The position numbers were made by a program, and so were the translations under genes. Shown here one piece after another: positions 14,656 through 42,554 of a DNA stretch of 64,000 nt (position 1 is its first letter; the number at the start of each line of letters is the position of its first letter). Location of the stretch: NCBI GenBank assembly GCA_031408175.1, contig JANOJI010000001.1, forward strand, positions 492 to 64,491. Reading direction: 5' to 3'. Below the pieces are notes generated by a model. The model was given only the letters and a program-made list of their open reading frames with translations, was not told where the DNA came from and did not search any database. This stretch comes from Ilumatobacteraceae bacterium (GTDB taxonomy: Bacteria; Actinomycetota; Acidimicrobiia; Acidimicrobiales; Ilumatobacteraceae).

Positions 14656-14656
14656 G

Positions 14657-18795: not shown

Positions 18796-18861
18796 GGTCA
18801 ACGATCCCACGTCGCCAGTTGCTTCGCGGAGGTCGGGCACAAACCTGCTTGCATCATCGGA

Positions 18862-23942: not shown

Positions 23943-24199
23943 CCATTCTGGCGGAATGCGGACGTGCGGACGTCTTGGATTCTGAGCTACTCGTCAACAT
24001 GCCGATGCCTCGCAGCGTTACCCGAGGACGGCGGATTGCAGGACACGGGTTTGGCCACGAGCCGCAGTTCGGCTGCCTGCTCGGCGTAGGCGGAGGGAAC
24101 GGCAGGGGACCTCGATGCCGTGCTGGGCACACACCTCGAGTGACGCGTGTTACTCGCTCCGGGTAGAAGGACGCGAACTACCGGTGTTCGACCAGCAAG

Positions 24200-25207
24200 C
24201 TACCGAACTGGCCGACTACTACGCCCATTAGCGCGAACAGACCGCTGAAGGTCGCCACCTTCCACCACTCGACCGTGGCGGCGGTCTCCTGCGCGACGAG
24301 CATCACGTGTCTCACCGCTGGGTGAGGCCAGGATGCACGCCGTGTCACCGGCGGATACCCGGGCATCCCGTCGGAGCAGCATGACGAACCCTGTGTACGG
24401 TGCCACGATCGGTGCCAAGGGTGCGCCTTCGACATCGATGATCGTCGCGATCACGTCACCACAGCTGACGAGATCCCCCACCCGGCAGTTGACCACCAAG
24501 TAGCCGGTTGCGGGAGCGGCGATCCCAGCGTCGGTGTTGCCGTCGCCGAGCACGTGGACGGTGGTGTTCGACGGAAGCGGGGACTCAATCAGCATCCCGA
24601 GAACATGGAGCACTCGACGAACCCCGTCCAAGTATCCCTGCAGGTCGCTGGCACGGATGGAGCGACCCCCGTGGCCCTCCACATAGATCGCGGGTATGCC
24701 GAGATCGTAGGCTACGGTCAACGACCGTCCCGGGGCGGGCGGACCTTCGTGGTGCCAGGTGAACTTCGCCGCGAGCGCATCGGCACACCACCGAGACTCG
24801 GCGCCTCGTCGGTCATCGCCGCCGTGATAACCGCAGAGAAAAGGCATCTCGAAGTTCGCACCTGCAGAGTGCAGGTCCACCAAGAGGTCGGCGCCTCGGA
24901 TCAGTTGCTCGGTGAGTACGTAGGCCACCTGTTCGGTCGGACTACCATCGGGTCGACCGGGGAACACCCGGGCCAGGTTCGCTCCGTCGACCGGGCTCTC
25001 TCGGGTTCGTGCTGTCCACGCAGCTGGATGTGCAGGCGCAGCAACGAGCACCTCTCCGCTGACCAGGTCAGTGCGGAACATCCGTACGAGCGACGCGGCA
25101 GCGATGACCCCTTCGTACTCGTCGCCGTGAACTCCACCGAGAATGGCAACCCTGGGCCCTGGCGCCGGACCGACCACTGTCTGCACGGTGGGCAACGTCG
25201 CGAACAT
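24200..25207 (-). CDS. Succinylglutamate desuccinylase/aspartoacylase (AstE/AspA) family Zn hydrolase
   Basis: VAILGGVHGDEYEG zinc motif and C-terminal barrel VGDLVSCGDVIATI. The last ~40 aa are Arg-rich and may be run-on. Confidence 0.75.
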   Translation of the reverse strand: MFATLPTVQTVVGPAPGPRVAILGGVHGDEYEGVIAAASLVRMFRTDLVSGEVLVAAPAHPAAWTARTRESPVDGANLARVFPGRPDGSPTEQVAYVLTEQLIRGADLLVDLHSAGANFEMPFLCGYHGGDDRRGAESRWCADALAAKFTWHHEGPPAPGRSLTVAYDLGIPAIYVEGHGGRSIRASDLQGYLDGVRRVLHVLGMLIESPLPSNTTVHVLGDGNTDAGIAAPATGYLVVNCRVGDLVSCGDVIATIIDVEGAPLAPIVAPYTGFVMLLRRDARVSAGDTACILASPSGETRDARRAGDRRHGRVVEGGDLQRSVRANGRSSRPVR

Positions 25208-25213
25208 GTGACC

Positions 25214-26071
25214 CTACGACGCAGCGACAACACGCGACCGGTGGGCGCCTAGCCCGGCGATGCCGAGATGCATGCAGTCACCGGGCGCGAGGAATCGGGG
25301 CGGTCGGAGTCCGAGTCCGACACCGGCGGGCGTACCCGTGTTGATGATGTCACCCGGTTCCAGGACCATGAACTGGCTGAGGTACCAGATCAAGTAGTCG
25401 ACCGGAAAGATCATGTCGGACGTGTTTGCGCTCTGGAGCCTTTCGTCGTTCACGTCGAGGTACATCTCGAGTTGCTGTGGATCGGCGACCTCGTCCGCAG
25501 TCGCGATCCAAGGTCCGAGCGGGTTGAACGTCGCACACGACTTGCCCTTGTCCCATTGACCTCCGCGCTCCAGCTGGAATTCGCGCTCCGAGACGTCATT
25601 GGCGACGGCATAACCGGCGATGCATCGAGCTGCGTCGGCGGGACTGTCCAGATAGGAGGTGGTCGAGTTGATCACCACCGCCAGCTCGACTTCCCAATCG
25701 GTCTTTCGTGAGTTCCGTGGGATGACCACGTCGTCGTTCGGGCCGACGATGGTGTTCGGAGCCTTCATGAAGACGATCGGCTCGCTCGGGATCTCCATCC
25801 CCGACTCGGCTGCGTGCTGTCGGTAGTTCAGCCCGATGCAGACGATCTTTCCGGGCCGCCGAAGCGGAGCAGCGATGCGAAGGCCGGTCGTGTCCAACCG
25901 GGGAAGTGCACCGCTGTCCACGGCCTCGCGCAGCCGGTGGAGTCCGTCGGTGGCGAAGAACGCCTCGTCGTAGTCTGGCGCGACCGCGCGCACGTCGAAC
26001 ACATCCGCAGGGTCTTCGGTGATGACCCCGGGAATCTCGTGACCGGGTACCCCGATTCGAATGAGCTTCAT
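25214..26071 (-). CDS. Fumarylacetoacetate hydrolase (FAH) family protein
   Basis: 285 aa. KIVCIGLNYRQHAAE, DWEVELAVVI, GDIINTGTPAGVG are typical FAH-fold motifs. Confidence 0.85.
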   Translation of the reverse strand: MKLIRIGVPGHEIPGVITEDPADVFDVRAVAPDYDEAFFATDGLHRLREAVDSGALPRLDTTGLRIAAPLRRPGKIVCIGLNYRQHAAESGMEIPSEPIVFMKAPNTIVGPNDDVVIPRNSRKTDWEVELAVVINSTTSYLDSPADAARCIAGYAVANDVSEREFQLERGGQWDKGKSCATFNPLGPWIATADEVADPQQLEMYLDVNDERLQSANTSDMIFPVDYLIWYLSQFMVLEPGDIINTGTPAGVGLGLRPPRFLAPGDCMHLGIAGLGAHRSRVVAAS

Positions 26072-26080
26072 GGCTGTGTA

Positions 26081-26902
26081 CTAGACCTCGTGCCCTGTCA
26101 GCGATCGGCGATCGGTCCGGCGCCCGATCCGCGCAGACGCATCACCGGCCATCGACATGGGCCCGTCCTCAGAGGAAGAGTCGGGGTTCAGGAATGCGGC
26201 GCGGAGCAGGTTGACCGTGCTCGTCAAGTGGCCGCGCATCGCATCGGCAGCGGCGTTGTGGTCGCCGGCCGCAAGGAAATCGATGATCTGACGGTGCTCC
26301 GCGTCGGCGGCATCGTGCCTGAACTTGACGGACATGTGCTGATACCGCGCGGCATGCGACCACAGTTGCTCGATGATCTTGAGTCGGCGCGGGGAGTTGC
26401 TCCGACGGTAGATGAGGAAGTGGAGGTCGCTGTTCAAGGCGACGACCTTGGGCACCTCGTTGCGCTGATTGGCGATGCCGATCCGATCGACGATCTCGCG
26501 GAGCAACTCGATGTCGCGCTCTTCGCAGGGACGGGCCCGACGAACAGCCTGACCCTCCAGCTCGATGCGAAGCTCGTACAGATCCTCTAGATCGGAGATC
26601 GACAGCGTGGTGACCCAGGCACCACGGTTGTGGCGAAAGATGACGAATCCTTCGGACTCGAGGATCCTCAGCGCTTCGCGTACCGGAATGAAGCTGGTTC
26701 CGCAACGTTCGGCGATCGTCTTCGGGAGGAGTTTGGTGTTGTGCCGGTACTCGCCACTGATGATGCCTTGGCGGAGATGCTGGACCACCCGGTCGACCGA
26801 GCTGTCTCCATGTCGATCAGCGGTACCGGGCGCGCCGCCAGCTGCCGATTTCCGGGTCCTCACCACAACCAAATCATATACTATCTGATTGGAGGCCCGC
26901 AT
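26081..26902 (-). CDS. GntR-family regulator, FCD subfamily (GntR-3)
   Basis: KLLPKTIAERCGTSFIPVREALRILESEGFVIFRHNRGAWV plus FCD-like domain. Start uncertain (ATG 26902, or TTG/GTG at 26872-26863). Confidence 0.8.
   Translation of the reverse strand: MRASNQIVYDLVVVRTRKSAAGGAPGTADRHGDSSVDRVVQHLRQGIISGEYRHNTKLLPKTIAERCGTSFIPVREALRILESEGFVIFRHNRGAWVTTLSISDLEDLYELRIELEGQAVRRARPCEERDIELLREIVDRIGIANQRNEVPKVVALNSDLHFLIYRRSNSPRRLKIIEQLWSHAARYQHMSVKFRHDAADAEHRQIIDFLAAGDHNAAADAMRGHLTSTVNLLRAAFLNPDSSSEDGPMSMAGDASARIGRRTDRRSLTGHEV
26871..26892. promoter_or_regulatory. AT-rich site (AAATCATATACTATCTGATTGG) at the 5' end of GntR-3
   Basis: Read directly; weaker match (ATAGTATAT). Confidence 0.35.
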
Positions 26903-27053
26903 TGAAATCCAATGCTGTATCAGACTGCCAGCAGACCGTCATGGTACTGCACCTCGGCGTCGGCCGGCGCTCGTCCCACGAATACACCGCCGCGCCGTCA
27001 GGCAAAGCCGGCCGTCGCAGGCGCAGCGTCGTCCAACGTGGGATTGGGCCGCA

Positions 27054-27992
27054 GTGCACGTGATCCGTGTCGGGCTTCTCGTGGTTGAAGTGAACGAGTG
27101 CCGTGGCGGTGAGATCGCTCGAGTTCGCTATCGCGATCACGACATCCTCGCATCGTACGACTGGACCTCCCCCGTTGGTGTGTCACAGAGCGTGACCTAC
27201 GGAGACGCGAAGCTGGATTGGCTATCCGAATACCGCGGAGGTTGGCAGCTGCTCGTGCCCAATGCGGGTGCGGCGTGCGAGGTCGACGGCGTTCCTTTGC
27301 CGTTCCACGGCGAGTGGTCCCGTACTCGCGTCACGGTGACCGAACGAGCCACCGACCGTGTCGTGATGACGGCTGGCACCCGGCTGCCTCTCACGGTCGA
27401 GCGCGAGGTGCGCGTCGAAGCCCGACCTGCCCGTGTGCTGGTGCGCACCACCGTCGACAACGTTTCCGGCGAACCCGTGTCGTTTGTCTGGGGCGAACAC
27501 CCCGCGTTCGCGGTCGGACAGGGCGACCGGATCGACTTCCCGCCGGCCGAGATCTTCGATGCCCACGGTGTCGGCGTCGGCCGTTGGCCCTCGTTGTCCC
27601 ATGGGCGACATCTCGGTCGGGTTGACACCGCTGATCCGTCCGAGTCGGTGCACTTCCTCGTCGGCTTCTCGGCGGGGTGGGCGGCGGTCCGTCGCGAACA
27701 TCTCGGCGTTGCGCTGGCATGGAACGTCGCGGATTTCCCGTACGCGTGGTTGTGGCACGAGGTCGCCAGTCCTGGGTTCCCGTTCTACGGGCGGACGTCC
27801 CTTGTTGCGATCGAACCGGCATCGAGTTGGCCCGGAACCGGGCTGAGGGGTGCGATCGAGCGTGGTCAGGCGATCGTTCTCCAGCCCGACGAACGACGTT
27901 CCACCACCGTCGCCTTGATTCCGTTCACACCCGACGGACGTGCTCTGTCGGGCGCTTCGATCTCCGGCCGACTGGAGTACTCCCCGTCATGA
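27054..27992 (+). CDS. Aldose-1-epimerase-like (galactose-mutarotase fold) protein
   Basis: Beta-rich sequence ...GGWQLLVPNAGAACEVDGVPLPFHGEW...FVWGEHPAF...SLVAIEP. Start uncertain (GTG 27054/27060); ATGA coupling to the next gene. Confidence 0.55.
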   Translation: MHVIRVGLLVVEVNECRGGEIARVRYRDHDILASYDWTSPVGVSQSVTYGDAKLDWLSEYRGGWQLLVPNAGAACEVDGVPLPFHGEWSRTRVTVTERATDRVVMTAGTRLPLTVEREVRVEARPARVLVRTTVDNVSGEPVSFVWGEHPAFAVGQGDRIDFPPAEIFDAHGVGVGRWPSLSHGRHLGRVDTADPSESVHFLVGFSAGWAAVRREHLGVALAWNVADFPYAWLWHEVASPGFPFYGRTSLVAIEPASSWPGTGLRGAIERGQAIVLQPDERRSTTVALIPFTPDGRALSGASISGRLEYSPS

Positions 27993-29230
27993 TCCGGAGG
28001 TCCTTCGACGCGAGCAACAAGGGGATCCCCTTCACCCACCGTGCTGCCAGCGGTTGGAACGTCTTCGGCGACGACACCACCCTGCCTGCCGCGGTGATCC
28101 TCGGCGCTGTCCTCGAGAGGAACAGCGCCGCGATGGCTGACTACTGCCAACGCAACGGAGTCTCTCTCGCGCCGCACGGGAAGACGACCATGTCCCCCGA
28201 GTTGTTCGAACTCCAGATGCGCGATGGGGCCTGGGCGATCACGGCGGCCAACGTGCACCAGGCCCGGGTCATCAGGGAGAGCGGGCTGCCACGGGTCCTG
28301 ATCGCCAACGAGGTCACGGCTCCCGGGGATGTCGCCTGGTTGGCACGGCAGGTCGAGTCGGGCTTCGACGTTCTCTGCTACGTCGACTCGCTGGCCGGGG
28401 TGCGACTATTGCAAGAGGGGATGACCGGCCATGCTCGGGGCGGGCGTCTGGGGGTCCTTGTCGAACTGGGTGTAGTCGGCGGGCGCACCGGGGCGCGATC
28501 CGTCGAGGAGGCGCTGCAGGTCGCACGCTCAGTCGCCGACACCCCGTCACTCCGCATCGCCGGCGTCTCCGGGTTCGAGGGCATCATCGTCGCGACCGAC
28601 GAGGCGACCGCCGAGGAACGCGTCGACGCGTTCCTGACCCGGTTGGTGCATCTTGCGGAGGCGATCAACGACGAACGACTGGCGGACGACGCCGAGGAGT
28701 TCATCGTGAGTGCCGGCGGCAGCGTCTTCTTCGACCGGGTCGTGGCAACATTGACGCAGGTCCGTTTGTCCTTGCCGGTCCGGGTGGTCGTGAGAAGCGG
28801 GTGCTACCTGAGCCACGACGACGGTGTCATCGACGACCTGTCGCCGCTCGGAGCGCACCCACGAGTCGTGGGTGATGTCTTTCATGCGGCGCTCGAGGTG
28901 TGGTCGCCCGTGCTCTCCCGCCCTGAATCCACCCGGTTGATCCTCGGCGCCGGAAAGCGTGACCTCTCCACCGACAACACCTTCCCGGTCGCGAAGAAGT
29001 GGGTGCAGCGGGGCACGCGCGTGGTGCGGGACCTCGACGCTCGACCACGTGCGATCAAGGTCGATGATCAGCATGCTTACGTGGACATCGATCCCTCGTG
29101 CGACATCGCGGTAGGTGATTACGTAGGTCTTGGCATCTCCCATCCGTGCACGACGTTCGACAAGTGGAGGGTCATGCTCGTCGTCGACGAGGCGTACGAC
29201 GTCGTCGACGTCGTCACCACCCGCTTCTGA
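27989..29230 (+). CDS. PLP-dependent amino-acid deaminase (alanine-racemase-N fold, D-serine-dehydratase-like)
   Basis: LAPHGKTTMSPEL (PHxKT PLP-Lys motif), 413 aa, C-terminal beta domain ...VGLGISHPCTTFDKW. Confidence 0.7.
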   Translation: MIRRSFDASNKGIPFTHRAASGWNVFGDDTTLPAAVILGAVLERNSAAMADYCQRNGVSLAPHGKTTMSPELFELQMRDGAWAITAANVHQARVIRESGLPRVLIANEVTAPGDVAWLARQVESGFDVLCYVDSLAGVRLLQEGMTGHARGGRLGVLVELGVVGGRTGARSVEEALQVARSVADTPSLRIAGVSGFEGIIVATDEATAEERVDAFLTRLVHLAEAINDERLADDAEEFIVSAGGSVFFDRVVATLTQVRLSLPVRVVVRSGCYLSHDDGVIDDLSPLGAHPRVVGDVFHAALEVWSPVLSRPESTRLILGAGKRDLSTDNTFPVAKKWVQRGTRVVRDLDARPRAIKVDDQHAYVDIDPSCDIAVGDYVGLGISHPCTTFDKWRVMLVVDEAYDVVDVVTTRF

Positions 29231-29240
29231 GCGTCCGACC

Positions 29241-30767
29241 TCAGTCGGTCGGCTCGGCTGGGCCGTACGAGGTTTCGGGTTCGAACGGGAACATCGGTCG
29301 CCGCCGGCGCCGATACGTGAGGGACAACAGATCGGCGCTGGTACACCCTCGGGTGTCAAGTTGGATCATTTCGGCGGCGATCGGTTCGTACGCCCCACGC
29401 GGGGAGTGGACTCCTTTGGCGACGATGATCTGCAGGTCCGACGGGTCCAGTCCGATGCTCGTGAGTTCAGCGCGGCTCGTGTTCCCCATCGGGCGCGACG
29501 TGAGCAGGACGAAGTGACCGTCGTCGGTCTCGAGCAGCGCACGCCGACCGGCGTCGAAGAACCGGAATCCACCGTGCGTGACACCGGGATCCTCGAACTT
29601 GCCGTCGTCGAGAAGACGAACTCGTGCCGTCACGGTGACCGGTGCTCCGTGCAGGTCGTCGGTTCGGGCGCCGACGCTCAACGTCAACGAAGCCCCGACA
29701 CCCGCTGTGGCGCACAGCTGTACCGCTGCGGGATCGCAGAGCGAGTGGAAGAGATCCCGGATCCCGAGGCGTTGGGCGGCCGCCAGAACGTGGGTCGAGT
29801 CGCCCGGGCTGCCTCCGCCCACGTTGTCGCCAACGTCGAGCAGCACCACGGGTCGCTCCGATGATCCGGCCGCGCGTCGGAGCGCCACGTCGGTGTCGAC
29901 CGCCTGCCCGACGAACTCTTCACGGAGGTGCCAAGCCTCATCGGCGAGTTGCCCGACGACATCTTCTGCGAGGACTCGGTCCCCGTCGGTGACCGCGACG
30001 AACGACATGCCCATCTCGGCAACGTCGGCGTAGGGGAACCCTTCGAGCACGCTCACTGAGAGCACTCCATCGCGAGCACCGAGCTCGGCGGCGCGACCGA
30101 CCAACTGACTCATCGGCCAATCGCTGGTGCCCTGCCGAAGGATTCCGATGGCCACCGGTGGCGTGGCGAGCGCCATAACGGGCCGGATCGTCCCTCGGGC
30201 CGCGGCGAGTGCGAGGTCGGCGACCTGACGCGCTCGCGGCCTGGGATCGACGTGGGGATTGGTGAGGTAGGCGTTGAGGACGTCGCAGTTCCTCACCATT
30301 CGGTGCGACACGTTGCCATGCATGTCGAGTGCAACGCCGATGATGACGGTAGGTCCAACGAGAGCACGGACTCGGGAGATGATTTCACCGTCTGCATCGG
30401 GCTGGTGCATCGCAACGGAGGCCCCGTGCAGGGCGAGCAGCACGACGTCCCATGGTCCCCGCTCGGTGAGGGCACGGGTCATCCGTCCCACGAGATGTTC
30501 GAACGCCTCTTCGGTGATCGTACCCATCGGGTTCAAGTCGGCGTGCACGAGCGGCGTGCAGTCGACGTCGCCGAGAGCCATCACCTCGAGAAATCCGGCC
30601 AGCGTCGCCTGGGAAGTCCCATACCGCTCGATGATTTCGGCGCCCTCGGTCACCCCTCCGGCGAGAAAGCGTTCCAGGGAGGCCGGCACCGGTGCGAAGG
30701 TGTTGGATTCGTGGTGGAACCCGAGCACGGCAACTCGCAACGGGTGTTCGGCAGTGCGTGCATTCAT
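29241..30767 (-). CDS. MlrC-like M81-family metallopeptidase (paralogue 1)
   Basis: LRVAVLGFHHESNTFAP N-terminal motif; 508 aa two-domain layout. ATGA overlap with the upstream gene. Confidence 0.8.
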   Translation of the reverse strand: MNARTAEHPLRVAVLGFHHESNTFAPVPASLERFLAGGVTEGAEIIERYGTSQATLAGFLEVMALGDVDCTPLVHADLNPMGTITEEAFEHLVGRMTRALTERGPWDVVLLALHGASVAMHQPDADGEIISRVRALVGPTVIIGVALDMHGNVSHRMVRNCDVLNAYLTNPHVDPRPRARQVADLALAAARGTIRPVMALATPPVAIGILRQGTSDWPMSQLVGRAAELGARDGVLSVSVLEGFPYADVAEMGMSFVAVTDGDRVLAEDVVGQLADEAWHLREEFVGQAVDTDVALRRAAGSSERPVVLLDVGDNVGGGSPGDSTHVLAAAQRLGIRDLFHSLCDPAAVQLCATAGVGASLTLSVGARTDDLHGAPVTVTARVRLLDDGKFEDPGVTHGGFRFFDAGRRALLETDDGHFVLLTSRPMGNTSRAELTSIGLDPSDLQIIVAKGVHSPRGAYEPIAAEMIQLDTRGCTSADLLSLTYRRRRRPMFPFEPETSYGPAEPTD

Positions 30768-32362
30768 GGTTGGCGCCTCAACACCTTCCCGGGTCGATGA
30801 CCCGTCACCACACCGTCCTCGAGCACGAGGGTTCCGCCGACCATCACGTGACTGATGCCGATCGGCGCGCAGGCGGGCTGTTCAAAGGTCGCCCGATCCT
30901 CCACGATTCCGGGGTCGAAGACGACGAGATCCGCCGCCATGCCGACCTCGATGGTGCCACGATCACGAATACCAAGACGCCGCGCTGGTTCGGCGGTCAT
31001 CTTGCGAATGGCGTCCGGAAGTTCCAACAGGCCGCGGTCGCGTACATAGCGACCGAGGACTCGGGGAAATGTCCCGAAACTCCGCGGATGAGGCTTGGCC
31101 AAGGCTTGTTCGAGTGGAATCGCGTTGCCGTCGGACCCGACCACGGCCAGCGGATGTCGCAGGAACGCCGCCACATCCGCGTCGGTCCGGTAGAAGAGCA
31201 CCATCTGAATTTCGTTCCCGTACTGCTCGCACAACCTCAGGGTGAGTTCGTCAGGCGACAGACGCCGGGCCTCGGCGAGTTGGGCGAGGCTCTGGCCGAC
31301 GAAGGCACCGTCCGGAGTGCTCGACACCAAGAATCGGTCCCACAACCAGGGAATCCCGTTGAACCAGCCGGCCTGCATGTCCGCGACGGCCCGCCGGCGG
31401 GTATCGGGCTCTGCCAGGCGTCGCCGCATCTCGTCGGTGCCGCCCTCCTGTACCCACGGCGGCAGGTACTGCGTGAGGGAGGACGACGACGCGTCGTAAG
31501 GGTAGACGTCGAACAGGATGTCGACCCCGTCCCTGCGGGCTTGCTCGAACATCTCGAGGAGTTCGTGGCCGGTACCCCATCGTTCGGGGCGGTTGATCGC
31601 GAGGTGGCTGAACTCCACGGTTACACCGGTCATCCGTCCCACCTCGATCGCCTCGGCGACTGCGTCCCGTTCGTCGTTGCCGATTGCGCGGGAGTGCGTG
31701 GCGTACAGCGCACGATGTTCGGCGAGGACCTCGGCGAGTGCCATCACCTCCTCGAAATCCCCGTACGAGCTCGGGACGTGCGTGAGTCCGGTGCTCATTC
31801 CGAAGGCACCCTGCGCCAACGACTCGCCGAGATCGCCGATCATCCGCTGGAGTTCGACGGGGCTGGGAGGTCGCGCATCGACACCCATCGCTGCGACACG
31901 GAGGGTGCCGTGTCCAGCGAGCGCTGCGACGTTGAGCGCAATGCCCTCGTGCTCCAGTGCGCGGGCGTAACCGTCATAGTCGGTCCACCACGGACGCACC
32001 GGCGCAGTGGCACGTGCGAGGTGGTCGGCGTGAAGATCAAGACGTGACGGCTCGATGGGGAAAGCGGAGAAGGAGCAATTGCCCACGACCTCCGTCGTGA
32101 CGCCCTGGCGGAGTTTGCTCTCGCCCGCTCCGTCCACGAGCAGCGTGAGGTCTGAATGGGTGTGGATGTCGACGAATCCAGGGCACAGGACCGCTCCGTG
32201 AACATCGATGACGCGGGCGGCGTCGGGGAGGGTGGGGTCGGCACTCGCGTCGTTGCCGATCCATGCGATTCGACGATCGGCGATGCCCACCTGACCGGGC
32301 CGAGCCGGCGCACCCGAGCCATCGACGATCGATGCGTTCACAATGGCTACGTCGTACCTCAT
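30764..32362 (-). CDS. N-acyl-D-amino-acid deacylase (D-aminoacylase) family amidohydrolase
   Basis: MRYDVAIVNASIVDGSG...VLCPGFVDIHTHSD metal motif, ~530 aa. Confidence 0.8.
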   Translation of the reverse strand: MRYDVAIVNASIVDGSGAPARPGQVGIADRRIAWIGNDASADPTLPDAARVIDVHGAVLCPGFVDIHTHSDLTLLVDGAGESKLRQGVTTEVVGNCSFSAFPIEPSRLDLHADHLARATAPVRPWWTDYDGYARALEHEGIALNVAALAGHGTLRVAAMGVDARPPSPVELQRMIGDLGESLAQGAFGMSTGLTHVPSSYGDFEEVMALAEVLAEHRALYATHSRAIGNDERDAVAEAIEVGRMTGVTVEFSHLAINRPERWGTGHELLEMFEQARRDGVDILFDVYPYDASSSSLTQYLPPWVQEGGTDEMRRRLAEPDTRRRAVADMQAGWFNGIPWLWDRFLVSSTPDGAFVGQSLAQLAEARRLSPDELTLRLCEQYGNEIQMVLFYRTDADVAAFLRHPLAVVGSDGNAIPLEQALAKPHPRSFGTFPRVLGRYVRDRGLLELPDAIRKMTAEPARRLGIRDRGTIEVGMAADLVVFDPGIVEDRATFEQPACAPIGISHVMVGGTLVLEDGVVTGHRPGKVLRRQP

Positions 32363-32403
32363 CACGCTCGACCCAGCGACGAGGGGCAGACCGTCCACTT
32401 CGC

Positions 32404-32451
32404 GATTGTAGATACCGCGACGCGCATGGACGCACTTTATAAAGTTGGTGC
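32404..32451. promoter_or_regulatory. GATTGTAGATACC plus CACTTTATAAAGTTGGTGC in the D-aminoacylase / RidA divergent region
   Basis: Read directly. Confidence 0.35.
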
Positions 32452-32487
32452 CACACTGTCCACATGGTTCCCGAGGAGGTCCGAACG

Positions 32488-32910
32488 ATGAACGAGGAGC
32501 CCGGGTCCAGCCCGGTTCACGCCGCCGAGTCTGCGCGAGGCTGGATGCAGATCACGACGGACAGCGCCAGCCACTTGCCGTTCTCGGCCGCCGTCGAGGC
32601 CAACGGCTTCGTCTTCGTTTCCGGGCAAGCGTCGGTGGACGGCAACGGCGTCATCGTCCCAGGGGACTTCGAGGCGGAGATGCGGCGCTCGATGCAGAAC
32701 GTGACCGACATCCTGCAGTCGGCCGGGCTCACATTGAGCAATGTGGTTCGCGTAACGAGCTACGTCCACGACCCCACCGACCTGCCGCTCTACAACCAAC
32801 TCTACCGCGAATACTTTTCCCGCCCGTATCCGGCACGGTCGACGATTACCAGCTGCCTGTCCGGCGCTCTGAAGTTCGAAATCGACGTGATCGCCGTCAG
32901 GCCGAACTAA
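32488..32910 (+). CDS. RidA/YjgF-family reactive-intermediate deaminase
   Basis: FSAAVEANGFVFVSGQ...VVRVTSYV...PARSTI...EIDVIAV. GAGGAGG RBS 8 nt upstream of the ATG. Confidence 0.85.
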   Translation: MNEEPGSSPVHAAESARGWMQITTDSASHLPFSAAVEANGFVFVSGQASVDGNGVIVPGDFEAEMRRSMQNVTDILQSAGLTLSNVVRVTSYVHDPTDLPLYNQLYREYFSRPYPARSTITSCLSGALKFEIDVIAVRPN

Positions 32911-32967: not shown

Positions 32968-33930
32968 TCAACAGCAGTGCCGTTCGGTGGCGTGCAACAT
33001 GCCCCGGATGTAGCCGTAGGCGAACAGTCGACCGAGCATCGTGTAGCCGGGCTCACCGTCGTCCTCTCCGAGCATCTGGGGCACGTGGTCGGGGCGTATC
33101 GGGCCGTCAAACCCGACGTCCCGGTAGGCGCGCATGGCCTCGGCCATATCGGTCTGCCCGTTGTCCTGCCACGTCTCGCGGAAGTCGTCAGCGGTGCCGA
33201 TGACGTCGCGGAAGTGCACGTAGGCGATGTGCGGGCCGAGCCGCCGGATCGTCGCCGGGATGTCGACCCCCATCTCGGAGAAGGTGCCCTGACAAAACGT
33301 GATCTTGTTGCAAGGTGACTCGACGAGGTCGACGAGCCGTTCGAACCCGGCGACGTCGTGCATGATCCGATCGTTGCCCAACAGTTGCGAAAGGGGCGGG
33401 TCGTCGGGGTGCATCGCCATCACCACGCCGGATTGCTCGGCGACTGGAATGATCTCGTCGAGAAAGCGCTGCAGGTTCTTCCAGAGCTCCGGGCGCTCGG
33501 CTCCTGGCTCGAGTTCGGCAGAGAAGGCGGGACGACCCGGGATCCGGGCATGATCGAGGTCCGCCAGGCGGAAGGCCGTGGTCTTTGCGCCGCCCCGCTC
33601 AGGTGCATCGACGGCCGTACGGATCCAGTCGGTTCCCGCCATGAAGTTGTAGCAGACCAACCGGATGTCGAGATCGCCCAGATGGCGAACGAGAGCCTTC
33701 ATCGCCACGAGGTCGGAACCGTCGTCGGTACCAAGCTTGATCCGATCGATCGGCAGGTAGCCTTCGACCGCCCCGATCTCCATCCCGAACGATCGGACAC
33801 GACCTCGGAGGCGATCGAACTCCGAGAGGTCTGGTCCCGGATACCGCACGATCACCTGGTCGACACCGCACTGTGCAGCCAGCGTCAGGTTCTCGTCGGA
33901 CAGCGGGGTGAGGACAGATGCCAGCTTCAT
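32968..33930 (-). CDS. Mannonate-dehydratase (UxuA)-like TIM-barrel protein
   Basis: CYNFMAGTDWIRT, VVMAMHPDDPP, AYVHFRDV, GPIRPDH motifs match the UxuA family (short form). Confidence 0.7.
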   Translation of the reverse strand: MKLASVLTPLSDENLTLAAQCGVDQVIVRYPGPDLSEFDRLRGRVRSFGMEIGAVEGYLPIDRIKLGTDDGSDLVAMKALVRHLGDLDIRLVCYNFMAGTDWIRTAVDAPERGGAKTTAFRLADLDHARIPGRPAFSAELEPGAERPELWKNLQRFLDEIIPVAEQSGVVMAMHPDDPPLSQLLGNDRIMHDVAGFERLVDLVESPCNKITFCQGTFSEMGVDIPATIRRLGPHIAYVHFRDVIGTADDFRETWQDNGQTDMAEAMRAYRDVGFDGPIRPDHVPQMLGEDDGEPGYTMLGRLFAYGYIRGMLHATERHCC

Positions 33931-33981: not shown

Positions 33982-35073
33982 TCAGAAGACGATCAGGCCG
34001 CGAGCTTGTTCGCCGGCGGCCAGCGAGCGAAAGGCCTCGTCGGCTTCATCCAAATCGTACCGCTTGGTGACGAGCTCGTCGATCTTGATCCTTCCGGCCA
34101 TCGCCAGCTCGACGAGTTTCGGGAACTCGACCAGCGGATTGCCCGTCCCGTAGCGCGAACCGACGATGCGACGCTCGCCGCCCATGAGCAGCCACGGATC
34201 GACCTGAAACTTGGCCCCCGACTCCGGAAGACCGAGCACCACTTCGATGCCCTGCTTGGCAAGGATGGCGAGCCCCTGCTCGAGCGCCGTGATGTTGCCG
34301 ACAGCGATGATCGTCGCATCGACCCCTGTGCCCGTGAGCGTCTGGATCTCTGCCTCGAGGTCTTGACGCACGGTGTTGATCGTGTGCGTCGCCCCGAACG
34401 CCCTGGCGAGTTCGAGCTTCGAGTCGAGCACGTCGACACCGATGATCGGGTAGGCGCCAGTCGCCACCGCACCTTGGATCGCGTTGAGGCCGACCCCACC
34501 GCAACCGAACACGGCAACGCTCTGTCCGGCCCGCAGGCCGGCACTGTTGACCGCCGATCCGAACCCCGTTGCCACCGAACAGCCGATCAGCGCCGCGACC
34601 TCGAGCGGGAAGTCCTTTCGGATCTTCACCGCAGCTGACTCTGGCACCACGATGTACGACCCATAGGTGGCAGGTCCGTAATGATGTACGTCCTCACCAT
34701 CGTGGTGGAAGAGCGTCACGTCACCGTTGGCCTTTCCGATTGCCGGTGTGTTCAGGCACAGCGCGGGGAAGCCGAGATTGCAGTACTTGCAGGCGCCGCA
34801 TGTGGGGGCCCAGGAAATGACGACGTGGTCGCCTGTTTGCAGCTGTGTCACGCCGGCTCCGACAGCGTCGACCACACCCGAGCCCTCGTCGCCCAGCACG
34901 ATGGGCATCGGAATACCCGAATGCGAGCCGTCGTAGGCGTGGAGGCAGCTGTGGCAGACGCCGCTCGCCACCATCTTCACCCGGACCTCGCCGAAACGAG
35001 GTTCGTCGAGTTCGAGTTCCGTCATCTGCATCGGCTCGCGGGGCTTGATGAGCACCGGCGCATTGATCAACAT
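33982..35073 (-). CDS. Zn-dependent alcohol dehydrogenase family protein
   Basis: GVCHSCLH...VLGDEGSGVV Zn site, GCGGVGLNAIQGA Rossmann motif. AGGAGGGGA RBS upstream of ATG 35073. Confidence 0.85.
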   Translation of the reverse strand: MLINAPVLIKPREPMQMTELELDEPRFGEVRVKMVASGVCHSCLHAYDGSHSGIPMPIVLGDEGSGVVDAVGAGVTQLQTGDHVVISWAPTCGACKYCNLGFPALCLNTPAIGKANGDVTLFHHDGEDVHHYGPATYGSYIVVPESAAVKIRKDFPLEVAALIGCSVATGFGSAVNSAGLRAGQSVAVFGCGGVGLNAIQGAVATGAYPIIGVDVLDSKLELARAFGATHTINTVRQDLEAEIQTLTGTGVDATIIAVGNITALEQGLAILAKQGIEVVLGLPESGAKFQVDPWLLMGGERRIVGSRYGTGNPLVEFPKLVELAMAGRIKIDELVTKRYDLDEADEAFRSLAAGEQARGLIVF

Positions 35074-35162
35074 AAGCGGTCCCCTCCTGGAGTGTGTCGT
35101 GGGTCGTGAAGTGAGGTCGCACCGCCTTGGGGCCACCCGGGTGTCGGCGGACTATGGTTCAA

Positions 35163-35180: not shown

Positions 35181-35221
35181 GGGAGAGCGACAGCCATGCG
35201 AAGAGTGCACTCCGAGGTCTC

Positions 35222-36094
35222 ATGAGACGGGAGGCGGTCCCGGACGTCGCGGTCGACTGCCGCTCGTTCCTGGGTGAGGGGGTCACATGGGACGCGGATA
35301 CCGGCACGTTGCTATGGCTCGACATCGACCAGCGCCTGTTCCATCGCCTTCGCGCTGATGGCCGCCACGAGAGCACGACGCTCGAGCGAACGACAAGCGT
35401 GGTGGTGCCCCGCCGTGACGGTGGATTCCTCGCAGTCGCCGGACGTGAGGTGGTGAAGATGGATGAACGCGGGCATTTCGGAGCCGTCATCGCGACATTG
35501 CCCGCCGACGGCGATGGTCGGGCCAACGACGGGCGGTGCGATCCGCACGGCCGTCTGTGGGTGGGAACGGTCGATCGGTCCGGCGCCCGTCAGGCCGGAC
35601 TGTTCCGCGTGGACGATGTGGGCGAGGTCGTCGAGGTGCTCTCGGATCGGGCGCTGCCCAACGGCATCGACTGGAGTCCGGATGGTCGACGGTGCTACCA
35701 CGCGGATTCCTTGCTGAGACGAATCGACGTGCTCCTGCTCGACCAGCAGGGGCACCTGACCGAAACACGGGAGTTCGCGGCGTTTGCGGCGATGCCCGAC
35801 GGTCTCACCGTCGACGCGGAGGGCGGAGTATGGGTCGCGCTCTGGGATGGTGGCGTGGTTCAGCGATTCGACCCCGACGGGCGGCTCGATCGCACGTTGA
35901 CGGTTCCCGGCGGCTGGATCACGAGCTGTGCCTTCGGTGGTGCCGGGCTACGCACCCTCTACATCACCACGGCGCGAGTCGACCTCGATGCCGAGGCGCA
36001 ACAGCGACAGCCGCACGCCGGTTCACTGTTCGCGATCGAACTCGACGTCGCGGGTCGGAGCTACACACCGTTCGGATCCCGAGCATCGGTCTGA
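35222..36094 (+). CDS. SMP-30/gluconolactonase/LRE-family protein
   Basis: GEGVTWDADTGTLLWLDI, NDGRCDPHGRLWVGT, PNGIDWSPDG, PDGLTVDAEGGVWVA propeller repeats. Confidence 0.85.
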   Translation: MRREAVPDVAVDCRSFLGEGVTWDADTGTLLWLDIDQRLFHRLRADGRHESTTLERTTSVVVPRRDGGFLAVAGREVVKMDERGHFGAVIATLPADGDGRANDGRCDPHGRLWVGTVDRSGARQAGLFRVDDVGEVVEVLSDRALPNGIDWSPDGRRCYHADSLLRRIDVLLLDQQGHLTETREFAAFAAMPDGLTVDAEGGVWVALWDGGVVQRFDPDGRLDRTLTVPGGWITSCAFGGAGLRTLYITTARVDLDAEAQQRQPHAGSLFAIELDVAGRSYTPFGSRASV

Positions 36095-36104
36095 CGCGGC
36101 AGTC

Positions 36105-37085
36105 TCAGGCGCAAGCGGGCGCGTTCGAACTCCAGCGGTTGAACTGCCGGTCGCGCCCGGCGGCGCCGAGCTGTTCGCGCGCCGCCACCCACATCTGCGC
36201 CCACTCCTCAGCGTCGTGGAGTTCCGTCTCCGGAGCCTGACGGCTCCGGGCAACGAAGCCGGGGAACGCGTCGCGGCCGGTGGGCTGCCCGATCGGGTTG
36301 TACCGCAGGTCGAAGCTGATCCGGACCTCGTCGCTCAGATTAGGGAGCGAGTTGTGCAGCGTCAGCTTGTGGATGAACAGCAGGTCGCCGGGATCCATCG
36401 GCAGCGGGGTCGCCCCGTCGCGCGGCCCGATGTGTTCGGGGACTTGGAGGCCTCCCGGGCCGGCCGGACAGTGCGCCATCAGCCCTCGGCAGTGCGAGCC
36501 GGGTACGACCTGGAGGCAGCCGTGCTCGACCCCTACGTGCTTGAGCGGGAACCACACCGTCAGGATCTGCGTGTCGTCGGCTTCCGGCAGCACGACCCCG
36601 TTGTCCTGGTGCCAGTTGGTGGCTCCCATCTTCAACGCGCCGGTCACGGGGTCGCGTGCCTCGCGAGACTCCGGAGCCTTGATACGCACGTGTTGCACCG
36701 GGTTCGAGTGGATCTCGGGTCCGATGAAGCCTTCGACCAGATCGAGCAGGTCGGGACACCGCAGCATGTCGAACACCGCCGGGCCGTGCCACATCGGGGT
36801 GTCGTGCCGGATGCCGGCCTGCGGCAACGAGAAGTCGAAGAACTGGGCGTTGGTCTCGTTGGACTCCGCGCAGATCTCCACGAATTGTTCGCCGAACGGC
36901 AAGTCGTCGTAGAGGCTGGTGATCCGACCTGCGACGAGCAGGTGTTCCGCCACACGATCAAGCACCGATTCGTACTCGCGCAGGATCGGCGCGATCCAGC
37001 GGTCCGGGTCGATCGCGCTACGAACGACGACATACCCCTCCCGCTCGAAGTGATCCTGGTGCGATCGGGACAAAGTGGTGGTCAC
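36105..37085 (-). CDS. Phytanoyl-CoA dioxygenase (PhyH) family Fe(II)/2OG oxygenase
   Basis: FEREGYVVV N-terminus, NWHQDNG (HxD), LQVVPGSH. 4-nt overlap with the upstream ABC ATPase gene. Confidence 0.8.
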   Translation of the reverse strand: MTTTLSRSHQDHFEREGYVVVRSAIDPDRWIAPILREYESVLDRVAEHLLVAGRITSLYDDLPFGEQFVEICAESNETNAQFFDFSLPQAGIRHDTPMWHGPAVFDMLRCPDLLDLVEGFIGPEIHSNPVQHVRIKAPESREARDPVTGALKMGATNWHQDNGVVLPEADDTQILTVWFPLKHVGVEHGCLQVVPGSHCRGLMAHCPAGPGGLQVPEHIGPRDGATPLPMDPGDLLFIHKLTLHNSLPNLSDEVRISFDLRYNPIGQPTGRDAFPGFVARSRQAPETELHDAEEWAQMWVAAREQLGAAGRDRQFNRWSSNAPACA

Positions 37086-37882
37086 CCGTCAGCCTCTCGG
37101 TCCAGACTCGCAGCGCGCGCGGCATGGAGCAGCGCACGTGTGTAGTCCGACTCGGGCGTGCCGAGCAATGCGTCGGTGCGTCCCGACTCGACGATGATTC
37201 CGTCGCGCATCACGATGATCTCGGCGCACATGCGGCTTACCACACCGAGGTCGTGTGACACCATCACTAGGGTGAGGCCGAGCTCCTCACGGAGGTCCAT
37301 CAGGAGGTTGAGGACCTGCGCCTGGACCGAGACGTCGAGTGCGCTGACCGGCTCGTCGGCGTACAGGATCGTCGGGTTCACGGACAGCGATCGCGCGATC
37401 CCGATGCGCTGGAGCTGTCCACCCGAGAGCTGGTGTGGGAATCGTGGGAGAACCTCACGTCCGAGGCCCACGCGCTCCAGCCACGTGACGAGCTCGGCCT
37501 CTTCCGGAGTGCGATCCTGCAACGCCCGAATCGGCTCACTCAACGACCGTCGGACGGTCATCCTCGGATCCAACGACCGGCGCGGGTTCTGGAACACGAT
37601 CTGGTTACGACGATGCAGCTCCAAGGCGTCTCGACCCGTGAGCTCGGAGATGTCGCGACCGTCGAAGCGCACGGTGCCGCGTTGGTGACGCAGCAGACCG
37701 CACATGACGCGGATGAGCGTCGACTTGCCCGAACCCGACTCACCGACGACGCCGAGGGTCGACTGGGGCCGGACGTCGAGCGAGATGTCCTTGAGCGTCC
37801 AGCCTTCGTTGTTCGCGCCGAGACGTGCTCGGGGGTAGTGGAACGACATGTCGTTGACTTCGACGAGTGACATGACGGTCAT
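37082..37882 (-). CDS. ABC transporter ATP-binding protein (DppF type)
   Basis: [34 protein letters not shown] overlap at 37879-37882. Confidence 0.9.
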   Translation of the reverse strand: MTVMSLVEVNDMSFHYPRARLGANNEGWTLKDISLDVRPQSTLGVVGESGSGKSTLIRVMCGLLRHQRGTVRFDGRDISELTGRDALELHRRNQIVFQNPRRSLDPRMTVRRSLSEPIRALQDRTPEEAELVTWLERVGLGREVLPRFPHQLSGGQLQRIGIARSLSVNPTILYADEPVSALDVSVQAQVLNLLMDLREELGLTLVMVSHDLGVVSRMCAEIIVMRDGIIVESGRTDALLGTPESDYTRALLHAARAASLDREADG

Positions 37883-38841
37883 TCCTCGGCGGGGTTCCAA
37901 CACGAGTACCGATGGTCTCTGCCCACCGTCACCGGTTCGGGCGCGGCGGTGCAGGCCTCAGTCGCGTGCGCGCAGCGATTCCGGAACCGGCAGCCGGTGG
38001 GGAAGTTGCCGACTGCGGGCACCGAGCCCGGGATGGTCTGCAACCGCTGCCCGATGAAGGCCGAGAAGTTGGCGTCCTTCGGCATCCCCGGGTTCGCCGC
38101 GAGCAACGCGATGGTGTACCGGTGCTTCGGATTCGCGATCACGTCCTCGACCCAACCCGTCTCGACGATGTGCCCGCCATAGATCACCGCGACGCGGTCG
38201 CACACGAAGCGGATCACCCCGAGATCGTGGCTGACGAACAGGACGCTCATCTTGCGTTGCTCGCTCAACGAGATGAGCAGCCGCAGGATCTCCTCCTGGA
38301 CGGTGACGTCGAGGGCTGTCGTGGGTTCGTCGGCGATGAGCAGTTCCGGGTCGGCCGCGATCGCTGCCGCGATCATGACTCGTTGCTGCTGGCCGCCAGA
38401 GAGCTGGTGCGGGTACCGACGCACCAGTGTCGGCGGGTCGGGCAGCTGGACCTGCTCGAGCAGTTCGATGACCTTGTCGGCAACGGCAGCCTTCTTGAGC
38501 CCTGTGTGCAGGCGGATGGCCTCGGAGACCTGCCGTCCGATCCGCATCATGGGGTTCAGCGAGCGAGCCGGGTCCTGGAACACGAATCCGATCTTCCGGC
38601 CCCGGATCTCGGACAGCTGGCGGTCGTCCATCGTGAGCAGCTCGCGACCTGCGAACCGGACGGAGCCGGAGACCCTGGCCACGTCGGGGAGCAGCCCGGC
38701 GATGGCCGTCGCCGTCATCGTCTTGCCGGATCCGGATTCGCCGACGAGCCCGAGACGGGTGCCGGGCTCGAGCGCGAGCCGGTCGATGTGGATGATCTCG
38801 TGTCCGTCGATCCGCACCCGTACATCGTCGAGCTCGAGCAT
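37879..38841 (-). CDS. ABC transporter ATP-binding protein (DppD type)
   Basis: [31 protein letters not shown]-terminal GCRFRNRC. Confidence 0.9.
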   Translation of the reverse strand: MLELDDVRVRIDGHEIIHIDRLALEPGTRLGLVGESGSGKTMTATAIAGLLPDVARVSGSVRFAGRELLTMDDRQLSEIRGRKIGFVFQDPARSLNPMMRIGRQVSEAIRLHTGLKKAAVADKVIELLEQVQLPDPPTLVRRYPHQLSGGQQQRVMIAAAIAADPELLIADEPTTALDVTVQEEILRLLISLSEQRKMSVLFVSHDLGVIRFVCDRVAVIYGGHIVETGWVEDVIANPKHRYTIALLAANPGMPKDANFSAFIGQRLQTIPGSVPAVGNFPTGCRFRNRCAHATEACTAAPEPVTVGRDHRYSCWNPAEE

Positions 38842-39788
38842 CAGGAGAGCCCACTTCGCGCTTGCTGTGGATCGAGCACGGTCCGCAGGCCGTCACCGAG
38901 CAGGTTGAACCCGAGCGCTGTGAGGACGATGGCCAGCCCCGGGAAGAACATGAGGTACGGAGCCGCTTCGAGCAGTGACTGCGTCTCGTTGAGGAACCGT
39001 CCCCATGAGGAGGTCGGTGGCTGCACGCCGACGCCGAGGAACGCGAGTGCCGCTTCGATGAGAATCGCGGCCGCGAACATGACGGAGCCGAGCACGATCA
39101 GGAGGGAGCTGATGTTGGGGAGCACGTGCCGCAGCAGCACGTACGACTTGCGTCGCCCGTACCCGTAGGCCGCCTCGACGAAGTCGAGGGCGAGCACTTG
39201 GCGCGCCGGACCGATCGTGACACGAGCCGCGACTGGCACCTGCCACGTGATGATCGCGAGGGTCGCGGTGGTGTTGCCGGCCCCCAACTTGGCGCCGAGG
39301 ACGAGGGCGGTCAGGATGCCCGGGAACGCGAGCCCGGCGTCGACGAGGCGCGTCAACGGACCCTGCAGGACGCGGTGCGAGCCGGCGATCGCGAGCCCGA
39401 TCGTGGAGCCGAGGAACATCGCGACGACCGTCGAAACGACGCTCACATACAGGGAGTTCCGAGCCCCGAGCATGAGCTCGGTGACGACGTCGCGTCCGGC
39501 TCGATCGGTGCCCAACGGGAATCCCCGGGTACCCGGGCTCGCCAGACGGTTCGTCAGGTTCAGCTGATTCGGCGGGTACGGGGTCCACACGAACGACACC
39601 AGAGCCACGAGTACGAACAGCGACACCAGCGTTCCACCGAGGTAGAGCGTGATTGGCCAGCGACGTAGGCGCCATCCCAGCGATCGCCGGTCGGCTGGCG
39701 TGGACGGTATCCCGGCGTCGGCGTCGATCGGCTGTGTTTCAGGCACCGGCGGCCTCTTTGTCTCGGATTCGCGGGTCGAGGAAGCCAT
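38841..39788 (-). CDS. ABC transporter permease (DppC type)
   Basis: Multi-TM permease. An alternative GTG start at 39746 would reduce the 50-nt overlap with the upstream gene. Confidence 0.85.
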   Translation of the reverse strand: MASSTRESETKRPPVPETQPIDADAGIPSTPADRRSLGWRLRRWPITLYLGGTLVSLFVLVALVSFVWTPYPPNQLNLTNRLASPGTRGFPLGTDRAGRDVVTELMLGARNSLYVSVVSTVVAMFLGSTIGLAIAGSHRVLQGPLTRLVDAGLAFPGILTALVLGAKLGAGNTTATLAIITWQVPVAARVTIGPARQVLALDFVEAAYGYGRRKSYVLLRHVLPNISSLLIVLGSVMFAAAILIEAALAFLGVGVQPPTSSWGRFLNETQSLLEAAPYLMFFPGLAIVLTALGFNLLGDGLRTVLDPQQARSGLS

Positions 39789-40698: not shown

Positions 40699-40710
40699 GA
40701 GTCTCCCCTA

Positions 40711-40744
40711 CATCGTTGCATTCAGAACATCGTTGCATTCAAAA
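40711..40744. repeat. Tandem 17-bp direct repeat (CATCGTTGCATTCAGAA / CATCGTTGCATTCAAAA) just upstream of the permease start
   Basis: Read directly. Two adjacent copies differ at one position and are AT-rich relative to their surroundings. Confidence 0.8.
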
Positions 40745-42520: not shown

Positions 42521-42554
42521 TCTACTCCCCCTTAGAAATGTTCAAGCACTGATC

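Follow-up and report, generated by a model that had tools for sequence, protein, structure and literature searches.

An Ilumatobacteraceae genome (assembly GCA_031408175.1) carries on contig JANOJI010000001.1 an eight-gene locus, at 24200-32910 of the 64,000-nucleotide stretch analysed here (the window), which makes up the left half of an island some 26 kb long (24.2-50 kb). An Ong-like line of deacylase, deaminase and RidA protein has been recruited into this island of the Acidimicrobiia together with hydrolases of the M81 family, to which the microcystin-degrading enzyme MlrC belongs. We put at about one in two the chance that this is a conserved, horizontally mobile catabolic island digesting an imported amide conjugate with an amino-aldonate-like unit. 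Its substrate is probably not microcystin but a conjugate of an N-acylated amino-(sugar-)acid. A sequence-only reading of the locus had taken it for a system salvaging D-amino-acid peptides or N-acyl-D-amino acids; its observation is confirmed, and its interpretation is partly supported.

The window is nearly the whole of a 64.7-kb contig in a genome bin of 4.37 Mb and 650 contigs (completeness 88%, contamination 6%), and all genome-wide negatives reported below apply to that bin. Gene families were called from Pfam matches above curated cut-offs, with NCBIfam equivalog models consulted for finer identity. Guanine-plus-cytosine content is ~64% throughout the window and the island does not deviate from it. 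Names on the closest homologues are Ilumatobacteraceae, Acidimicrobiia bacterium and Candidatus Poriferisodalis.

Layout of the eight-gene locus

The eight genes that the sequence-only reading had listed are all in place, and their Pfam families agree. Leftward, on the minus strand, lie a GntR/FCD regulator (GntR-3; 26081 to ~26866; Pfam GntR and FCD), an FAH-family hydrolase (25214-26071; PF01557, 237 bits) and an AstE/AspA-family zinc deacylase of the N-acyl-L-amino-acid deacylase type (24200-25207; PF24827, 84 bits). Divergent from these, on the plus strand, are a DUF4432 protein with a modelled galactose-mutarotase-like fold (27054-27992; PF14486, 48 bits) and a fold-type III pyridoxal-phosphate (PLP) deaminase/dehydratase (27989-29230; PF14031 and PF01168, that is, D-ser_dehydrat and Ala_racemase_N). 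Convergent with the deaminase come, again on the minus strand, an MlrC-like M81 metallohydrolase (paralogue 1; 29241-30767; PF07364, DUF1485, and PF07171, MlrC_C) and a D-aminoacylase-family amidohydrolase (COG3653 type, Amidohydro_3; 30764 to 32362 or 32398, depending on the start chosen). A RidA-family enamine/imine deaminase is encoded on the plus strand (from 32464 or 32488, alternative starts, to 32910; PF01042, 89 bits). Both 4-nt ATGA overlaps are confirmed, at 27989-27992 (DUF4432/deaminase) and 30764-30767 (M81/amidohydrolase). The boundaries first drawn around these genes need revision, as they cut through the larger conserved island.

A deaminase assigned to the OngC/3gwq subfamily, and its RidA partner

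The combination of enzymes had been described as a pathway not recognised; a precedent does exist in the OngB/OngC/OngD route for N-acetyl-D-glucosaminate (PMC9537276, PMC12017989). In Pseudoalteromonas prydzensis ACAM 620 the acetyl group of N-acetyl-D-glucosaminate (GlcNAc1A) is removed by OngB, an enzyme of D-aminoacylase fold. The fold-III PLP enzyme OngC turns the product into 2-keto-3-deoxygluconate (KDG) and NH3 and also deaminates D-Ser and D-Thr, and in vivo the RidA protein OngD is indispensable (PMC9537276). The canonical cluster used here for comparison is that of Pseudoalteromonas sp. CF6-2 (L023; CP091443, the accession deposited with PMC9537276).

The PLP enzyme of the window scores 249 bits to PDB 3gwq, and its scores to D-threonine aldolases, to hydroxyaspartate aldolase/dehydratase and to D-serine dehydratase do not exceed 80 bits. 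It is 34% identical to OngC of strain CF6-2 over its full length (E 1e-69). Its SHPC aligns with the SHPC of 3gwq and with the SHVD of D-threonine aldolase 4v15; a metal-binding H-x-C marks the dehydratase-like fold-III enzymes, and H-x-D the aldolases. Because of the gap in subfamily scores and the H-P-C motif, the deaminase is placed, by sequence comparison, in the OngC/3gwq subfamily. The PHGKT lysine motif previously read in its translation is present. The expected D-specific fold-III type, as opposed to an alanine racemase, is upheld by the subfamily score and the H-x-C motif, which also rule out a D-threonine aldolase.

The RidA protein is 33% identical to OngD, and its gene is divergent from that of the amidohydrolase. 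It scores 83 bits to TIGR00004, below the cut-off of 106. The translation carries YPARST, which includes the PARS motif holding the arginine needed for RidA deaminase activity.

The coupled amidohydrolase

Solved deacylases of N-acyl-D-amino acids are the best-scoring homologues of the amidohydrolase: N-acyl-D-Glu deacylase (BbDam) at 268 bits, D-aminoacylase (AfDam) and KleDacyl at 244 bits each, with PpOngB at 208 bits. By these scores the enzyme is equidistant from the characterised members. Identity to OngB of L023 is 33%. In alignment to 3gip, 1m7j and 9g5m the metal-ligand motifs (H-x-H, Cys, His, His and Asp ligands) are kept (DIHTHSD, GNCS, ATHSR, FSHL and GSDG), as is the carboxylate-binding YPY. 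The window enzyme differs from these solved deacylases in an insertion of ~45 residues in the mobile alpha/beta domain, after YPY-DA-SSSS, and in having Ser rather than Thr at the third position of the motif that follows YPY; its genomic context is unlike that of any characterised deacylase member. The insertion prevents placing an equivalent of OngB Gln298, which with Ser292 makes up the signature of the OngB clade. The amidohydrolase and its orthologues share with OngB the Ser-Ser-Ser after YPY, of which the third Ser in OngB binds the C3-OH of the substrate, its place being taken by Thr in AfDam and BbDam (PMC12017989). The motif is suggestive rather than diagnostic.

The DUF4432, FAH and AstE proteins

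A search of the DUF4432 sequence against the PDB gave no match, and BLASTP comparison with the "aldose 1-epimerase" that neighbours the deaminase in Agrobacterium was not significant (E 0.11); literature searches found nothing on DUF4432. Because sequence searches found no relation, the evidence for the fold comes from modelling. An AlphaFold prediction made from an alignment of six orthologues (pLDDT 82, pTM 0.85) has as its top Foldseek matches 3k25, 3ty1, 3nre, 2ciq and GalM, at probability 1.0 and TM-scores of 0.6-0.7. The predicted structure is the beta-sandwich of aldose-1-epimerase/galactose mutarotase, which bears out the mutarotase fold proposed for this protein. Invariant motifs are FHGEW, GEHPAF and IEP, and these motifs nominate H85, H149 and E254 as putative mutarotase catalytic residues.

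The closest named family of the FAH hydrolase, by a wide margin, is 2,4-didehydro-3-deoxy-L-rhamnonate hydrolase (LRA6, NF053535), with 329.6 bits over the full length and 159 for the next family. As the cut-off is 500, the enzyme is a relative and not a member of LRA6. The best NCBIfam match of the AstE protein, DoeB, reaches 115 bits, so far below its cut-off of 402 that we do not regard the protein as a DoeB orthologue.

The right half of the island

To the right of RidA, a short UxuA-like protein of the mannonate-dehydratase family (32968-33930, minus strand; PF03786, 226 bits; PRK03906, 195 bits against a cut-off of 191) and a Zn-dependent alcohol dehydrogenase of class III/NDMA-ADH-like type (33982-35136, minus strand) are followed by a lactonase of the SMP-30/gluconolactonase family (35200-36094, plus strand; PF08450, 231 bits). 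At 36105-42541 (minus strand) lies a Dpp/Opp-type ATP-binding cassette (ABC) importer comprising an SBP_bac_5 substrate-binding protein (SBP), two permeases and two ATPases; the gene of a PhyH-family dioxygenase dependent on Fe(II) and 2-oxoglutarate is coupled to the importer genes and ends the operon. The closest solved structures to the SBP are GsiB, DppA and AgaA.

A plus-strand operon (42607-47461) encodes two short-chain dehydrogenases/reductases (SDRs), M81 paralogue 2 (44247-45734) and an IlvD/Edd sugar-acid dehydratase (45731-47461) scoring 815 bits to the L-arabinonate dehydratase model. The last two genes overlap by GTGA (45731-45734), and the pair is kept at a locus of another genus (L008, 672-3883). 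A HemL-like class-III aminotransferase (47510-48808, minus strand) comes next, and a phage-type integrase (50542-51606) marks the right edge of the island. The genome bin has four M81 paralogues. The amidohydrolase, deaminase, RidA, AstE, DUF4432, UxuA-like, lactonase and PhyH genes, all on this contig, have no second copy above 28% identity in the bin.

Conservation across the Acidimicrobiia

The arrangement is kept outside this genome, so that it survives the refuting condition which the sequence-only reading had set on this point, at M81 paralogue 1 identities of 58-98%, and the orthologues in that range share neighbours in independent metagenome contigs and in genomes of several genera. 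Metagenomes hold many orthologues, at 60-98% identity, and 9 of 400 other genomes sampled from the class have one; an unpublished genome, G291, enters the analysis only through this tally. None was found in the 24 same-genus genomes searched, where the best match is 33% identical. The integrase at the right edge and the failure to find the island in those 24 genomes suggest horizontal transfer.

At loci L005, L006/L007 and L018 (70-81% identity) the whole order importer-PhyH-lactonase-ZnADH-UxuA-RidA-amidohydrolase-M81-deaminase-DUF4432-GntR-FAH-AstE is kept, and the order from ZnADH to AstE persists in three genera down to 69-70% M81 identity. The core arrangement is also kept in further genera of this family (L008, L009, L010), although DUF4432, GntR, FAH and AstE are missing from L010. 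Poriferisodalis-type contigs (63-64%) keep UxuA-amidohydrolase-M81/deaminase, plus PhyH, aminotransferase, M81 paralogue 2, lactonase and importer. At 58-63% identity (L011, L014, L019) M81, deaminase, AstE and PhyH or SDR are kept, and in one of these loci RidA joins the M81 operon.

Of the orthologous loci examined, only L012 and L013 lack a deaminase gene convergent with or near M81. In most loci the amidohydrolase gene adjoins M81 or lies within 8 kb of it, and UxuA-like orthologues (72-88% identity) adjoin the amidohydrolase. M81 and the deaminase thus form the tightest pair; the amidohydrolase is usually but not always adjacent. HemL-like aminotransferase orthologues (40-61% identity) adjoin M81 genes in L013, L015, L016, L017 and L020, so M81 may have here another partner that recurs.

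The left edge of the island appears altered in the window. AstE orthologues (57-69% identity, 299-305 amino acids) are accompanied by a PALP gene, which follows AstE with overlapping stop and start in L005, L006 and L018 and precedes it in L019. No PALP homologue was found on the window's contig or anywhere in the bin, and the last ~36 residues of the window's AstE reading frame form an unrelated tail without counterpart in the orthologues. The missing PALP gene and this tail (24100-24330) suggest a deletion at the left island edge.

Individual loci depart from the pattern in other ways. In L018 an enolase-superfamily gene and an aldo-keto reductase gene are inserted between amidohydrolase and M81 (7726-9920), and an FAD oxidase of D-lactate-dehydrogenase type stands before FAH (14599-16023). 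Three M81 orthologue matches carry one in-frame TGA each (G295:C242, G256:C30 and G346:C42). The first of these, L013, is possibly a pseudogene: none of the hydrolases or the deaminase of the island lies near it, and its one partner is an aminotransferase homologue of 40% identity.

M81 hydrolases and MlrC

M81 paralogue 1 shares with MlrC the two-domain M81 architecture, all four Zn ligands (E20, D148, H150 and H172, aligned with MlrC E39, D167, H169 and H191) and presumably Zn-dependent amide hydrolysis. In MlrC, E70 has a proposed catalytic or binding role, and W59 and F67 contact Adda (PDB 7YLQ; PMC9982164); in paralogue 1 these three residues are replaced by T51, T40 and R48. The score to the MlrC equivalog model NF041767 is 163.9 bits against a cut-off of 999. 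Genes resembling mlrA, mlrB or mlrD are not among the window's genes, and no genome-wide search was made for them. Microcystin degradation, already doubted in the sequence-only reading, is ruled out by the low model score, the replaced substrate residues and the lack of mlr partners in the window. From its aligned residues, paralogue 1 is an active-looking hydrolase with a predicted pocket unlike that of MlrC. The genomic setting differs as well, with four M81 paralogues in one genome and, as their partners, a deaminase and sugar-acid enzymes.

Literature searches found no M81 function outside microcystin breakdown. Because the M81 genes of the island overlap with an amidohydrolase gene and a sugar-acid dehydratase gene, the arrangement suggests that the enzymes release acids from amides. 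A rather doubtful extension of this idea would make them amidases for sugar-acid/amino-acid conjugates (aldonoyl or amino-aldonoyl amides, or N-aminoacyl amino-sugar acids as in bacterial glycans), with one paralogue feeding the IlvD-type aldonate dehydratase and the other the deacylase/deaminase/RidA line. If true, M81 would gain its first physiological role apart from microcystin breakdown, and the Actinomycetota a new non-phosphorylative pathway for amino-sugar acids.

Regulation: two conserved boxes

An operator-like box, an imperfect palindrome with core AATCRKATAGYAT, occupies 26872-26890 in the GntR/DUF4432 divergent region and is kept in six orthologous intergenic regions of this kind. 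Alignment of orthologous upstream regions places the likely start of GntR-3 at a GTG near 26866, just downstream of the box. The 64-kb window holds a single further good match to the box, at 42555-42569, in the gap that separates the importer operon from the SDR-SDR-M81(2)-IlvD operon. The left unit is tied to the importer/SDR promoters 15 kb away because the same operator-like box is present at both. Upstream of the amidohydrolase and RidA it was not found at up to three mismatches. Co-regulation of the whole island, which the sequence-only reading had expected of its eight genes, is therefore only partly supported: the shared box joins the left unit to the importer/SDR promoters, and the amidohydrolase/RidA region lacks it.

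The latter region has a box of its own, the perfect 12-nt palindrome ACTTTATAAAGT at 32434-32445, which is conserved in orthologous loci; a related AT-rich box is present in five of the six loci compared. The site had been called operator-like, and as a conserved palindrome it holds up. The one -10 hexamer of sigma-70-like type that the region yielded overlaps it, however, so it may be a promoter rather than an operator. An Rfam scan of 20-52 kb found no RNA family, and a terminator scan gave nothing above shuffles.

Comparison with the ong cluster and other relatives

The island and the ong cluster have the same three enzyme families in one locus, with deaminases of the same subfamily (PHGKT, H-P-C). 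The proposed logic is also alike: an N-acyl beta-hydroxy-D-amino acid is deacylated, the product undergoes beta-elimination, and the imine is hydrolysed to a 2-keto-3-deoxy acid. The differences are considerable. The proteins share no more than 33-34% identity with OngB, OngC and OngD; a GntR/FCD regulator takes the place of MurR/RpiR (OngR), and import relies on an SBP5 ABC system instead of SSS and TonB. M81 hydrolases, AstE, the mutarotase-fold protein, UxuA-like protein, IlvD, lactonase, FAH and PhyH are all additions over ong. The host belongs to the Acidimicrobiia, whereas the published ong distribution covers Gammaproteobacteria and one Betaproteobacterium. A tblastn search with the L023 proteins found no KdgK, GH20 OngA, SSS carrier OngIT or MurR/RpiR OngR in the window or the 88%-complete genome. 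Neither LPMO_10 (PF03067) nor GH20 (PF00728) was found in the genome, which has two GH18 genes on other contigs.

Outside the Acidimicrobiia, contexts of the OngC/3gwq subfamily, read on annotated replicons, are mostly sugar-acid ones, and SBP5 importers do accompany such modules. Megaplasmids of Ralstonia solanacearum (131 records match the deaminase) have Eda-GntP-RidA-amidohydrolase-MurR/deaminase-KdgK, and one such cluster (L026, CP076416, 618890-632008) appears to extend the published ong-like distribution in Betaproteobacteria. Its D-aminoacylase homologue (locus 3454-4895) is absent from the gene table, matches in two pieces and may be frameshifted. In Novosphingobium, RidA-deaminase-HpcH aldolase is accompanied by a TonB receptor, a lactonase and an SDR. 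On the Agrobacterium larrymoorei plasmid pAlCFBP5477 (L029, 191169-204341) the deaminase lies with two SBP5 ABC importers, RidA, HpcH aldolase, aldose epimerase, aldehyde dehydrogenase, SDR and GntR, a set suggestive of a route, so far uncharacterised, for oxidising amino sugars or opines. Comamonas combines an SBP5 ABC system, deaminase, MurR and D-aminoacylase; in Klebsiella and Pantoea the deaminase is accompanied by no more than RidA and a polar amino-acid ABC system.

A further comparison is with the non-phosphorylative L-rhamnose and L-fucose routes, which use an LRA5/LRA6-type dehydrogenase and FAH hydrolase. The island shares with these the LRA6-like FAH, SDRs, lactonase, sugar-acid dehydratases and mutarotase-fold protein, to which L018 adds its enolase-superfamily dehydratase, aldo-keto reductase and lactate-dehydrogenase-like FAD oxidase. 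It differs from them in that the 2-keto-3-deoxy acid would come at least partly from deamination, not dehydration.

Proposed route and competing explanations

For the favoured reading, digestion of an imported amide conjugate, we infer the substrates and the order of steps as follows. The Dpp-type ABC system would bring in a small carboxylate-bearing amide conjugate, whose amide bonds would be opened by cytoplasmic metallo-amidases (M81 paralogue 1, the coupled amidohydrolase and the AstE-type deacylase). The D-aminoacylase-type enzyme among them would free a beta-hydroxy-D-alpha-amino acid, most likely 2-amino-2-deoxy-aldonate-like. Beta-elimination of this amino-aldonate-like unit by the OngC-type enzyme, and hydrolysis of the enamine/imine by RidA, would yield NH3 and a 2-keto-3-deoxy acid. 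The SDRs would oxidise that acid, together with sugar acids that the UxuA-like and IlvD-type enzymes dehydrate, and the LRA6-like FAH hydrolase would split them. The GntR/FCD protein would repress, at the least, the divergent promoters beside its own gene and those of the importer and SDR operons. A sugar-acid-like moiety is favoured because of the mutarotase-fold partner, lactonase, UxuA-like and IlvD-type dehydratases, SDRs and LRA6-like FAH.

A number of observations count against this route. The importer SBP is nearest to peptide, glutathione and opine binders; the alcohol dehydrogenase is class-III/NDMA-ADH-like and not a sugar dehydrogenase; the aminotransferase is HemL-like; and M81 paralogues elsewhere sit with SBP5 peptide importers and P1/DmpA-type peptidases. 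The amidohydrolase scores lower to OngB than to N-acyl-D-Glu deacylase or D-aminoacylase, and its Ser-Ser-Ser motif is shared by KleDacyl, which works as an N-acetyl-D-amino-acid deacylase (PMC12149444). No defined step falls to PhyH, AstE, the aminotransferase or either M81 enzyme, and the promoter region of the amidohydrolase and RidA is without the GntR-3 box. The deaminase cannot discriminate between sugar-acid and D-peptide substrates, because OngC also accepts D-Ser and D-Thr.

The best placed of the alternatives, with a modest minority chance in our judgement, is the salvage of D-amino-acid peptides or N-acyl-D-amino acids put forward by the sequence-only reading: peptides would enter through the Dpp importer, the M81 and D-aminoacylase-family enzymes would cut beside D-residues, D-Ser or D-Thr would be deaminated, and RidA would quench the enamine. 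Beyond the accepted D-Ser and D-Thr, it draws on the resemblance of the SBP to DppA and GsiB, on the M81 paralogues found elsewhere with SBP5 importers and P1/DmpA peptidases, and on MlrC, which is generally known to cut an acyl-D-Glu-type bond after a beta-amino acid (PMC9982164). The Comamonas deaminase is paired with a D-aminoacylase of the classical G-S-T motif and an SBP5 importer, and that of Klebsiella and Pantoea with RidA and a polar amino-acid ABC system. Salvage of D-peptides leaves several conserved genes unexplained, however: the lactonase, the LRA6-like FAH, the deaminase's translationally coupled partner of mutarotase fold, and the two dehydratases of UxuA-like and IlvD type, one of which overlaps an M81 gene; neither a racemase, a D-amino-acid oxidase nor a D-Ala-D-Ala-type peptidase is in the island. 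The more particular idea of peptidoglycan or cyanopeptide fragments gained no specific support.

Quite unlikely is a patchwork of independent small modules travelling together without a single substrate (deacylase/deaminase, sugar-acid dehydration, importer with PhyH, aminotransferase). Such a history would suit L019, which is without amidohydrolase, UxuA-like protein and lactonase, the extra genes of L018, and L011 and L014, which retain only M81 paralogue 1, deaminase, AstE and one SDR. The lost PALP gene, the integrase at 50542-51606, the patchy spread (present in 9 of the 400 further genomes of the class, found in none of the 24 from the genus that were searched) and the two different conserved boxes of the divergent promoters also fit it. 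Arguing for one functional unit instead are the ZnADH-to-AstE order kept to 69-70% M81 identity in three genera, the GntR-3 box joining the left unit to promoters 15 kb off, and the stop/start overlaps that bind the M81 genes to the amidohydrolase and IlvD.

A true actinobacterial ong pathway, importing C1-oxidised chitin products (GlcNAc1A, chitobionic acid) for conversion to KDG, is very improbable and largely rejected: homologues of all three Ong core activities, the Ser-Ser-Ser motif and the SBP5 importer of the Comamonas module speak for it, but LPMO_10, GH20, KdgK, SSS and OngR-like proteins were not found in the 88%-complete genome, identities reach only 33-34%, the amidohydrolase scores higher to BbDam and AfDam than to PpOngB, and the downstream FAH and SDR are of non-phosphorylative type.

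The island is of interest on two counts. The deacylate-deaminate-RidA logic, described only for oxidised chitin in Gammaproteobacteria, here extends to the Acidimicrobiia; and for M81/MlrC-like proteins, widespread beside peptide-type importers, the island offers a conserved and testable pairing with an OngC-type deaminase, a D-aminoacylase-type deacylase and sugar-acid enzymes. Acidimicrobiia abound in sponges and in both fresh and sea water, and the locus suggests a route for using nitrogen-rich acidic conjugates from dissolved organic matter.

As a minor observation on the surroundings, a gamma-glutamyltranspeptidase gene lies to the left of the island at 17335-18840, and another adjoins an M81 paralogue in L019.

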